Below, in pieces: positions 33,586 to 38,669 of a DNA stretch of 64,000 nucleotides. Origin of the DNA: Escherichia coli (lineage in GTDB: Bacteria; Pseudomonadota; Gammaproteobacteria; Enterobacterales; Enterobacteriaceae). Each line of letters opens with the position of its first letter. Within the stretch, counting starts at the first letter, position 1. Below the pieces are notes generated by a model. The model ran no database searches and was not told the origin of the DNA. It saw only the letters and a program-made list of their open reading frames with translations. A program made the translations under genes and the position numbers. Where the stretch lies: the NCBI RefSeq assembly GCF_003334305.1, contig NZ_QOWS01000013.1; one strand, written 5' to 3'.

Positions 33586-33721
33586 ATTAGCAATAAACGT
33601 TGACAAAATGTGGCATGGATCACTATAATGCCTGCAGATTTTACGTCCCGTCTCGGTACACCAAATCCCAGCAGTATTTGCATCTTTTACCCAAAACGAG
33701 TAGAATTTGCCACGTTTCAGG

Positions 33722-33798
<77 letters not shown>

Positions 33799-33919
33799 CT
33801 TTCCCTTAGAGTCCTTTTTCAAATATACTGTGAAGACTTCGGCCTTCGTAGTGGGATTTGAAAAAATCCTTCTGGAAAGTGCTCCAGACCGCAGTTGCGG
33901 TTATAGGGTTCAGTTATAT

Positions 33920-33946
33920 AAAGCCCCGATTTATCGGGGTTTTTTG
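33920..33946 (+). terminator. Leader terminator/attenuator hairpin between metY and rimP
   Basis: Hairpin AGCCCCGATTTATCGGGGT followed by T6. Confidence 0.65.
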
Positions 33947-33967
33947 TTATCTGACTACAGAATAACT

Positions 33968-33987
33968 GGGCTTTAAGCCCTTTTTTT
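33968..33987 (+). terminator. Second hairpin with T tract immediately upstream of rimP
   Basis: GGGCTTTAAGCCC followed by T7; a tandem arrangement with the preceding hairpin. Confidence 0.45.
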
Positions 33988-34004
33988 ATGTCTTGGGGGT
34001 GGGC

Positions 34005-34457
34005 TTGTCCACATTAGAGCAAAAATTAACAGAGATGATTACTGCGCCAGTTGAGGCCCTGGGTTTTGAACTGGTTGGCATCGAATTTATTCGCGGTCGC
34101 ACATCCACACTGCGCATCTATATTGATAGTGAAGATGGCATCAATGTTGATGATTGTGCTGATGTGAGCCACCAGGTAAGTGCTGTGCTGGATGTTGAAG
34201 ATCCCATCACCGTTGCTTATAACCTGGAAGTCTCCTCACCGGGTCTCGATCGCCCACTGTTCACGGCTGAACACTACGCCCGTTTTGTCGGAGAAGAGGT
34301 GACTCTGGTTCTCCGTATGGCGGTACAAAACCGTCGTAAATGGCAGGGCGTTATCAAAGCGGTAGACGGTGAAATGATCACAGTTACCGTCGAAGGTAAA
34401 GATGAAGTGTTCGCGCTGAGTAATATCCAGAAGGCGAACCTGGTTCCCCACTTTTAA
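34005..34457 (+). CDS. rimP: Ribosome maturation factor RimP (YhbC), 150 aa, TTG start
   Basis: Translation (M)[24 protein letters not shown] beginning at a TTG codon; the ORF track begins at another TTG 12 nt upstream. Confidence 0.88.
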
Positions 34458-34484
34458 TAGTCTGGATGAGGTGAAAAGCCCGCG

Positions 34485-35972
<1,488 letters not shown>

Positions 35973-35996: not shown

Positions 35997-38669
35997 ATGA
36001 CAGATGTAACGATTAAAACGCTGGCCGCAGAGCGACAGACCTCCGTGGAACGCCTGGTACAGCAATTTGCTGATGCAGGTATCCGGAAGTCTGCTGACGA
36101 CTCTGTGTCTGCACAAGAGAAACAGACTTTGATTGACCACCTGAATCAGAAAAATTCAGGCCCGGACAAATTGACGCTGCAACGTAAAACACGCAGCACC
36201 CTTAACATTCCTGGTACCGGTGGAAAAAGCAAATCGGTACAAATCGAAGTCCGCAAGAAACGCACCTTTGTGAAACGCGATCCGCAAGAGGCTGAACGCC
36301 TTGCAGCGGAAGAGCAAGCGCAGCGTGAAGCGGAAGAGCAAGCCCGTCGTGAGGCAGAAGAATCGGCTAAACGCGAGGCGCAACAAAAAGCTGAACGTGA
36401 GGCCGCAGAACAAGCTAAGCGTGAAGCTGCTGAACAAGCGAAACGTGAAGCTGCGGAAAAAGACAAAGTGAGCAATCAACAAGACGATATGACTAAAAAC
36501 GCCCAGGCTGAAAAAGCCCGCCGTGAGCAGGAAGCTGCAGAGCTCAAGCGTAAAGCTGAAGAAGAAGCGCGTCGTAAACTCGAAGAAGAAGCACGTCGCG
36601 TTGCTGAAGAAGCACGTCGTATGGCGGAAGAAAACAAATGGACTGATAACGCGGAACCGACTGAAGATTCCAGCGATTATCATGTCACAACTTCTCAACA
36701 TGCTCGCCAGGCAGAAGACGAAAGCGATCGTGAAGTCGAAGGCGGCCGTGGCCGTGGTCGTAACGCGAAAGCAGCGCGTCCGAAGAAAGGCAACAAACAC
36801 GCTGAATCAAAAGCTGATCGTGAAGAAGCACGCGCAGCAGTACGTGGCGGTAAAGGCGGAAAACGTAAAGGTTCTTCCCTGCAGCAAGGCTTCCAGAAGC
36901 CAGCTCAGGCCGTTAACCGTGACGTTGTGATCGGCGAAACCATCACCGTTGGCGAACTGGCGAACAAGATGGCGGTTAAAGGCTCTCAGGTCATCAAAGC
37001 GATGATGAAACTGGGCGCAATGGCAACCATCAACCAGGTTATCGATCAGGAAACCGCACAGCTGGTTGCTGAAGAGATGGGCCACAAAGTTATCCTGCGT
37101 CGTGAAAACGAGCTGGAAGAGGCGGTAATGAGCGACCGTGACACGGGGGCTGCGGCTGAACCGCGCGCGCCGGTTGTGACCATCATGGGTCACGTTGACC
37201 ACGGTAAAACCTCTCTGCTGGACTACATTCGTTCAACGAAAGTGGCCTCTGGCGAAGCGGGCGGCATTACCCAGCACATTGGTGCATACCACGTTGAAAC
37301 TGAAAACGGCATGATCACCTTCCTGGACACCCCGGGGCACGCCGCGTTTACTTCAATGCGTGCACGTGGTGCGCAGGCAACGGACATCGTAGTCCTGGTT
37401 GTTGCTGCCGACGACGGCGTGATGCCGCAGACCATCGAAGCAATCCAGCACGCGAAAGCGGCGCAGGTACCGGTGGTGGTTGCAGTGAACAAGATCGATA
37501 AACCAGAAGCCGATCCGGATCGTGTTAAGAACGAACTCTCCCAGTATGGCATCCTGCCGGAAGAGTGGGGCGGTGAAAGCCAGTTCGTACACGTATCTGC
37601 GAAAGCGGGTACCGGTATCGATGAACTGCTGGACGCTATCCTGCTGCAGGCGGAAGTTCTGGAGCTAAAAGCGGTACGTAAAGGTATGGCGAGCGGTGCG
37701 GTTATCGAATCCTTCCTCGATAAAGGTCGTGGTCCGGTTGCTACCGTTCTGGTACGTGAAGGTACTCTGCACAAGGGCGATATCGTTCTGTGTGGCTTCG
37801 AATACGGTCGTGTTCGTGCGATGCGTAACGAACTGGGTCAGGAAGTGCTGGAAGCGGGTCCGTCCATTCCGGTGGAAATCCTCGGCCTGTCCGGCGTACC
37901 GGCTGCGGGTGATGAAGTTACCGTTGTACGTGACGAGAAGAAAGCGCGTGAAGTTGCACTGTATCGTCAGGGTAAATTCCGCGAAGTTAAACTGGCGCGT
38001 CAGCAGAAATCTAAACTCGAGAACATGTTCGCCAACATGACCGAAGGCGAAGTTCACGAAGTGAACATCGTCCTGAAGGCAGACGTACAGGGTTCTGTGG
38101 AAGCGATCTCCGACTCCTTGCTGAAACTGTCTACTGACGAAGTTAAAGTGAAGATCATCGGTTCTGGCGTAGGTGGTATCACCGAAACCGACGCCACCCT
38201 GGCTGCGGCGTCCAACGCCATCCTGGTTGGCTTCAACGTACGTGCTGATGCCTCTGCACGTAAAGTGATTGAAGCGGAAAGCCTGGATCTGCGTTACTAC
38301 TCCGTCATCTATAACCTGATTGACGAAGTGAAAGCGGCGATGAGCGGTATGCTGTCTCCGGAACTGAAACAGCAGATTATCGGTCTGGCGGAAGTTCGTG
38401 ACGTGTTCAAATCGCCGAAATTTGGTGCCATCGCAGGCTGTATGGTTACCGAAGGTGTGGTTAAACGTCACAACCCGATCCGCGTTCTGCGTGACAACGT
38501 GGTTATCTACGAAGGCGAGCTGGAGTCCCTGCGCCGCTTCAAAGATGACGTTAACGAAGTCCGTAACGGTATGGAATGTGGTATCGGCGTTAAGAACTAC
38601 AACGACGTCCGCACTGGCGATGTGATCGAAGTATTCGAAATCATCGAGATCCAACGTACCATCGCTTAA
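35997..38669 (+). CDS. infB: Translation initiation factor IF-2, 890 aa (alpha form)
   Basis: G domain motifs GHVDHGKT and DTPGH; repetitive Ala/Glu/Lys/Arg-rich N-terminal region. Confidence 0.97.

Follow-up and report, generated by a model that had tools for sequence, protein, structure and literature searches.

Where does translation of rimP begin in Escherichia coli? The question arises at the head of the metY-rimP-nusA-infB operon, in a window of 64,000 nucleotides of E. coli DNA (the whole stretch that was analysed), where three near-cognate candidates, TTG 33993, GTG 33999 and TTG 34005, are found in one reading frame within 15 nt. An earlier note, made from the letters alone, had placed the RimP N-terminus (M)STLEQKL at TTG 34005-34007, and the sequence, the RefSeq and K-12 annotation and the comparative evidence presented here all agree with that placement. 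Overall, we believe that translation of rimP very probably begins at UUG 34005, and that its product would be the 150-residue RimP.

The rimP locus

The gene, formerly called yhbC or P15a, is the first in the metY-rimP-nusA-infB operon to encode a protein. It lies directly upstream of nusA in the rimP-nusA-infB order, in agreement with the RefSeq and K-12 annotation, and NusA is also encoded downstream of rimP at the orthologous loci examined. The stretch from 33700 to 34500 (801 bases) agrees with many E. coli chromosomes at 100% identity, and a match to it is present in all 5426 complete genomes. The genes at the head of the operon are as follows.

33722..33798, plus strand: metY, the initiator tRNA-Met gene at the operon head (ARAGORN, Rfam tRNA match, K-12 annotation)
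34005..34457, plus strand: rimP coding sequence, 150 codons and a TAA stop (NCBIfam NF000927, PDB chains, RefSeq/K-12 annotation)
34485-35972: nusA open reading frame (ORF list)
35997-38669: infB (IF2) open reading frame (ORF list)

About 90 nt upstream of metY, at 33600-33629 on the plus strand, there is a perfect 12/12 sigma-70 consensus (TTGACA, an 18-nt spacer, TATAAT), which presumably corresponds to one of the promoters already described for the operon, P-1/P0 in PMC6511841.

Candidate start codons

An in-frame TAA at codon -14 closes the rimP frame upstream, and no ATG follows in this frame until the conserved protein has begun. What the frame does offer, right where the conserved protein begins, is a UUG: the TTG at 34005-34007 is followed by TCC ACA TTA GAG CAA AAA TTA, encoding STLEQKL. 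The earlier note had remarked that no ATG was available before the conserved region, and this holds, the first in-frame ATG being codon 11, at 34035-34037, already within the conserved N-terminal segment of RimP. The same note had the ORF track beginning at another TTG four codons upstream, and the program's ORF list does open its mechanical ORF (33993..34457, 154 aa) at TTG 33993, exactly four codons (12 nt) before TTG 34005. The in-frame GTG at 33999-34001 had been overlooked. Bacteria have three canonical start codons, AUG, GUG and UUG, and rimP resembles the other UUG-initiated genes of E. coli in using a rare one of the three, which initiator tRNA would read with the help of a Shine-Dalgarno sequence.

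33963..33965, plus strand: in-frame TAA closing the rimP frame upstream (stop at codon -14)
33993..33995, plus strand: in-frame TTG that opens the mechanical ORF, rejected (ORF list; duplex energy; CTG in some relatives)
33999..34001, plus strand: in-frame GTG two codons 5' of the TTG, rejected as main start (part of the Shine-Dalgarno sequence)
34005..34007, plus strand: TTG (UUG) start codon of rimP (sequence, annotation, conservation)
34035..34037, plus strand: first in-frame ATG, codon 11, rejected (sequence; codon variation; TTG in one related locus)

A further ATG, out of frame, opens a 9-codon ORF (MSWGWACPH*, 33988-34017, plus strand) directly after the leader U-tract, and this ORF overlaps both the rimP Shine-Dalgarno sequence and the start codon. 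It was considered as an upstream ORF and rejected: it lacks a Shine-Dalgarno match, and in five of the sampled related loci its ATG is lost, being ACG in L047, L068 and L072 and ATT in L078 and L079, on which account it is probably non-functional.

Existing annotation and protein family

The annotated E. coli rimP (b3170, NP_417639.6, WP_001300397.1) is the same gene at the same coordinates, with no difference. In NZ_CP027388.1 the PGAP coding sequence for WP_001300397.1 occupies locus positions 606-1058, equivalent to window positions 34005-34457, and the curated K-12 MG1655 record for b3170 gives a gene of 453 nt and a protein, NP_417639.6, of 150 aa. Both start at TTG 34005, so that UUG is the accepted annotation. 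The UUG start of rimP is correct, it is already known, and to propose it restates the existing annotation.

The protein family points to the same N-terminus. RimP chains in PDB 7afi and related entries begin MSTLEQKL, and over residues 1-150 they are identical, residue for residue, to the product of the TTG 34005 frame. This product matches the NCBIfam RimP equivalog NF000927 with 265.1 bits against a cut-off of 162, its residues 1-150 falling on profile positions 1-151 of 151, and near-identical database proteins carry PF02576 and PF17384. These matches bear on a start at ATG 34035, which would yield a 140-aa protein and reduce the UUG to an annotation convention. Near its 5' end the frame has no ATG other than codon 11, and the JGI gene calls for the cluster of the distant orthologue L201, at 142 aa, fit such an internal start; the equivalog profile, however, is matched from its first position.

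Only 81 UUG starts had been annotated in K-12 according to PMC4909307, a tetracycline start-site profiling study, and a UUG start is on that count uncommon but unsurprising. The same study reports several new UUG starts, ftsH included, that were confirmed by lacZ fusions; in comparison with those genes, the support for rimP consists of annotation, comparative and Shine-Dalgarno evidence.

The leader and the upstream TTG

Directly upstream of rimP, and well above the Rfam gathering threshold, lies a 101-nt structured leader.

33887..33987, plus strand: Rfam RF01770, 'Gammaproteobacteria rimP leader' (cmscan 102.8 bits, gathering score 47)

The RF01770 family comprises a cis-regulatory RNA 5' of the start codon, with the start codon itself outside. 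A terminator scan finds two terminator-like hairpins with U-tracts in the leader, at 33920-33943 and 33968-33980. PMC6511841 names the leader hairpins t1 and t2 and places them in a complex pattern of transcription, in which NusA has a part in controlling both its own expression and the operon's. The leader is also found 5' of rimP in Candidatus Profftia (L085) and Cognaticolwellia (L163). In E. coli 7 nt separate its end from the Shine-Dalgarno sequence, and because these two elements adjoin there, the DNA just 5' of the TTG is highly conserved. Their conservation also makes the translation 5' of the TTG look conserved, which misleads gene callers. We considered this conserved translation as coding sequence and rejected it: it corresponds to the leader U-tract and the Shine-Dalgarno sequence, lacks codon periodicity, and contains stops in other lineages.

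A start at TTG 33993 would require translation of this segment and would give a 154-aa protein. It is the start given by the ORF lister, and a few Photorhabdus database entries of 154 aa are consistent with it, but the codon sits only 5 nt past the U-tract of the second leader hairpin, and in the distant orthologues described below it is absent or preceded by stops.

The metY-rimP intergenic region also holds a 48-codon ORF with a GTG start (VKTSAFVVGF...ITGL*, 33830-33976, plus strand) that spans it and overlaps the leader hairpins. In a PIRT-seq study this ORF is 'CDS115', a putative rimP-nusA leader peptide, positive by transposon reporter and negative by western blot (PMC12350097). The apparent conservation of the CDS115 peptide may be a mere reflection of the conservation of the RNA leader.

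Many distant loci, among L098-L205 on metagenome contigs, carry a GC-rich hairpin and U-tract (for example GGGCC....GGCCCATTTTTT) immediately before the rimP start. The loci that bear it are probably beta- and gammaproteobacterial, and a terminator-like element abutting the rimP start seems far more widespread than the taxa in the Rfam RF01770 seed.

Ribosome-binding site

The 20 nt upstream of each candidate were hybridised in silico to the 16S 3' end, ACCUCCUUA, and the duplex energy was computed.

33995..34001, plus strand: Shine-Dalgarno-like GGGGGTG serving TTG 34005 (-9.7 kcal/mol, 16S 3' end duplex)

For TTG 34005 the duplex forms on GGGGGUG 33995-34001 and leaves a 3-nt gap to the codon. 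TTG 33993 has no usable match, at -0.6 kcal/mol, a further point against the 154-aa protein. The Shine-Dalgarno sequence stands at a functional spacing from TTG 34005 and not from the alternatives, and TTG 34005 is the only one of the candidates with a usable Shine-Dalgarno sequence.

The third candidate, GTG 33999-34001, would serve as the main start, or as a minor second one, of a 152-aa protein beginning MGLSTLEQ. It is in frame, and many database orthologues from Serratia, Yersinia, Photorhabdus and Xenorhabdus are 152 aa long and begin MGLSTLEQ or VGLSTLEQ. The GTG, however, itself lies inside the Shine-Dalgarno sequence; the sole purine-rich stretch upstream of it abuts it with zero spacing, at -4.3 kcal/mol, and both the current PGAP and the K-12 annotation use TTG 34005 instead.

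Conservation among close relatives

The earlier note had named an orthologue alignment as one way to check the start. Scanning one genome per species gave 80 loci at the level of the Enterobacteriaceae, with 92-99% protein identity and 79 distinct sequences, from Escherichia, Citrobacter, Salmonella, Klebsiella, Enterobacter, Kluyvera, Buttiauxella, Cedecea, Mixta, Pantoea and others. The alignment bears out the proposed start: TTG is kept at the homologous codon in all 80 species, and in nine of the more distant orthologues as well. Within E. coli itself, the 41-nt start region is found at an identity of at least 99% in 5422 of 5426 complete genomes.

The pattern of variation among these relatives separates the candidates. 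The four codons upstream of TTG 34005 have 1, 2 and 1 variable sites at codon positions 1, 2 and 3, with no coding periodicity, and TTG 33993, the first of them, is replaced by CTG in 5 of the 79 distinct sequences; a start there would have to be read through codons that vary as non-coding DNA does, and we regard it as extremely improbable. Downstream of TTG 34005 the picture is that of a translated sequence. Codons 2-10 have 1, 0 and 7 variable sites at positions 1, 2 and 3, and codons 11-150 have 30, 16 and 122, with clear coding periodicity. Judged by the third-position variation that sets in just after it, coding-type constraint appears to begin at TTG 34005.

The same counts decide against ATG 34035. 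With 7 of their 8 variable sites at third positions, codons 2-10 are under protein-level constraint and are translated, which rules out codon 11 as the start. The ATG is moreover TTG in locus L082, and the (S/A)TLEQKL residues, which are upstream of codon 11, are conserved as far as Haemophilus. We give the 140-aa protein next to no chance of being the product.

All 79 distinct sequences keep the GTG at 33999, which taken alone would favour a start there. Its invariance can be ascribed to its role in the Shine-Dalgarno sequence (GGNGGTG). Codon -3, just before the GTG, is GGG, or GAG in two sequences, and in these two related species the element reads GGAGGTG instead of GGGGGTG, which improves the Shine-Dalgarno match. 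The codon that separates the GTG from the TTG, codon -1, differs non-synonymously among the relatives: it is GGC, GGT, GCC, GCG or GAC in the 79 sequences, encoding G, A or D, and can also encode E or V in the wider Enterobacterales, variation that argues against a translated codon at that position.

Distant orthologues

For a deeper comparison we used representatives of 50%-identity clusters together with four hand-checked metagenome loci (L156, L163, L197 and L201), 15 distant orthologues in all, with about 44-66% identity where it was measured. A broad metagenome scan had returned 120 loci, mostly from distant bacteria whose N-termini are not reliably alignable to E. coli residue 1; the automatic start-codon census from that scan was set aside, and only the hand-checked, alignable loci were used.

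TTG stands at the aligned codon in nine of the 15 (L083, L085, L086, L088, L089, L156, L163, L197 and L201), among them Candidatus Profftia tarda (L085), a Glaciecola cluster (L083), Haemophilus parainfluenzae (L156) and Cognaticolwellia mytili (L163). Three others start with GTG (L090, L091 and L215) and three with ATG (L212-L214), so that the start is non-ATG in 12 of 15. In all nine TTG orthologues a Shine-Dalgarno duplex of the GGAG or GGGAG type ends 3-7 nt before the TTG.

Some of these loci leave little choice of start. In L085 and L163 the codon directly before the TTG is a TGA stop; in L088, L089, L156, L197 and L201 there is no other start codon between the upstream stop and the TTG, and the GTG-initiated L090 likewise offers no other start between its upstream stop and the aligned codon. 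Orthologues thus exist in which the homologous codon is the sole possible start, and an in-frame stop just upstream leaves no alternative in about six to seven of the nine TTG orthologues. These loci also weigh against GTG 33999, since an in-frame GTG is absent in Profftia, Haemophilus, Cognaticolwellia, L088, L089, L197 and L201, several of which have a stop at that place. Taken together with its position inside the Shine-Dalgarno sequence, this makes initiation at GTG 33999, whether as the main or as a second start, improbable in our judgement, if somewhat less so than the 154-aa and 140-aa readings.

In the Glaciecola cluster the gene caller took an ATG four codons upstream, overlapping the Shine-Dalgarno sequence (156 aa), whereas the NCBI entry, at 152 aa, fits the TTG. 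More broadly, the N-terminus is flush with E. coli residue 1 in 65 of about 137 full-length representatives of the 50%-identity clusters and within +/-3 residues in most others, although this alignment is soft evidence, hinging as it does on gene-caller choices and on MAFFT end-gap handling.

A model for initiation and the literature

A simple model for initiation at UUG 34005 would have GGGGGUG 33995-34001 position the 30S subunit a few bases 3' of the second leader hairpin, with the UUG being read as fMet by the initiator tRNA. The upstream GTG would then be part of the Shine-Dalgarno sequence and the upstream TTG part of a short post-leader spacer, neither acting as a separate start, and the product would be the ribosome maturation factor RimP, of 150 residues. 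From the sequence comparisons we strongly infer that cellular ribosomes use UUG 34005, and that codon alone.

The literature adds little to this. No paper in the accessible literature was found to map the N-terminus of RimP by direct experiment, or to confirm its UUG start by a reporter or by profiling, and the predicted N-terminal tryptic peptide does not occur in the literature searched. The names rimP, yhbC and b3170 are absent from the searched text and supplements of the start-site profiling paper (PMC4909307), a silence which suggests that no re-annotation of rimP was proposed there and which is otherwise uninformative. The one paper that came up for rimP together with a UUG start codon was the PIRT-seq study, whose subject is the leader ORF and not the rimP start.

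Persistence of the non-AUG start

What appears mildly new, on the orthologues compared, is that a non-AUG start of rimP persists across several gammaproteobacterial orders, a pattern drawn from a small sample (80 species and 15 distant orthologues) without phylogenetic correction. Beyond the 80 species, the homologous codon is again TTG in Pasteurellales and Alteromonadales and in an insect endosymbiont. In the orthologues behind this pattern, the start always comes after the leader terminator hairpin and the Shine-Dalgarno sequence. It is conceivable, though we consider it rather doubtful, that the weak non-AUG start is selectively maintained and not merely tolerated.

If it were, the UUG could set a low output of RimP relative to NusA and IF2, or translation of the first cistron could sense the supply of initiator tRNA or of IF2, two products of this very operon; either way, a translational layer would be added to the already complex control of rimP-nusA-infB. 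A gene to compare is infC, which encodes IF3 and is autoregulated through its AUU start codon, a non-canonical codon that IF3 discriminates against. Both infC and rimP are translation-apparatus genes with an unusual start, and that of infC is conserved and functionally meaningful. The infC AUU is non-canonical, however, whereas the rimP UUG belongs to the canonical AUG/GUG/UUG class, and we know of no feedback through the rimP start codon.

Start mis-annotation in orthologues

Regardless of whether selection is involved, the UUG start has a practical consequence for annotation, in that it leads to systematic mis-annotation of rimP starts. Database products of Enterobacterales rimP range from 142 to 219 aa, with lengths of 150, 152, 154, 160-165 and 170-219 aa recorded for near-identical genes (P0001-P0120), and the long calls, of up to 219 aa, read through the untranslated leader. 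Automatic gene callers thus mis-start rimP very often, which makes the E. coli TTG a useful anchor for correcting its orthologues. The correct start fixes the true N-terminus of RimP, presumably Ser2 after removal of Met, and it also sets where the untranslated rimP leader ends; beyond correct annotation it matters little.

Clustering of the database proteins produced one further oddity. The RimP of Haemophilus parainfluenzae (P0278, 151 aa) belongs to a 90%-identity cluster whose representative is a protein of 495 aa, and several 495-aa members of that cluster are named NusA, which suggests that the 495-aa representative is a clustering artefact, perhaps by way of a fused rimP-nusA gene call.
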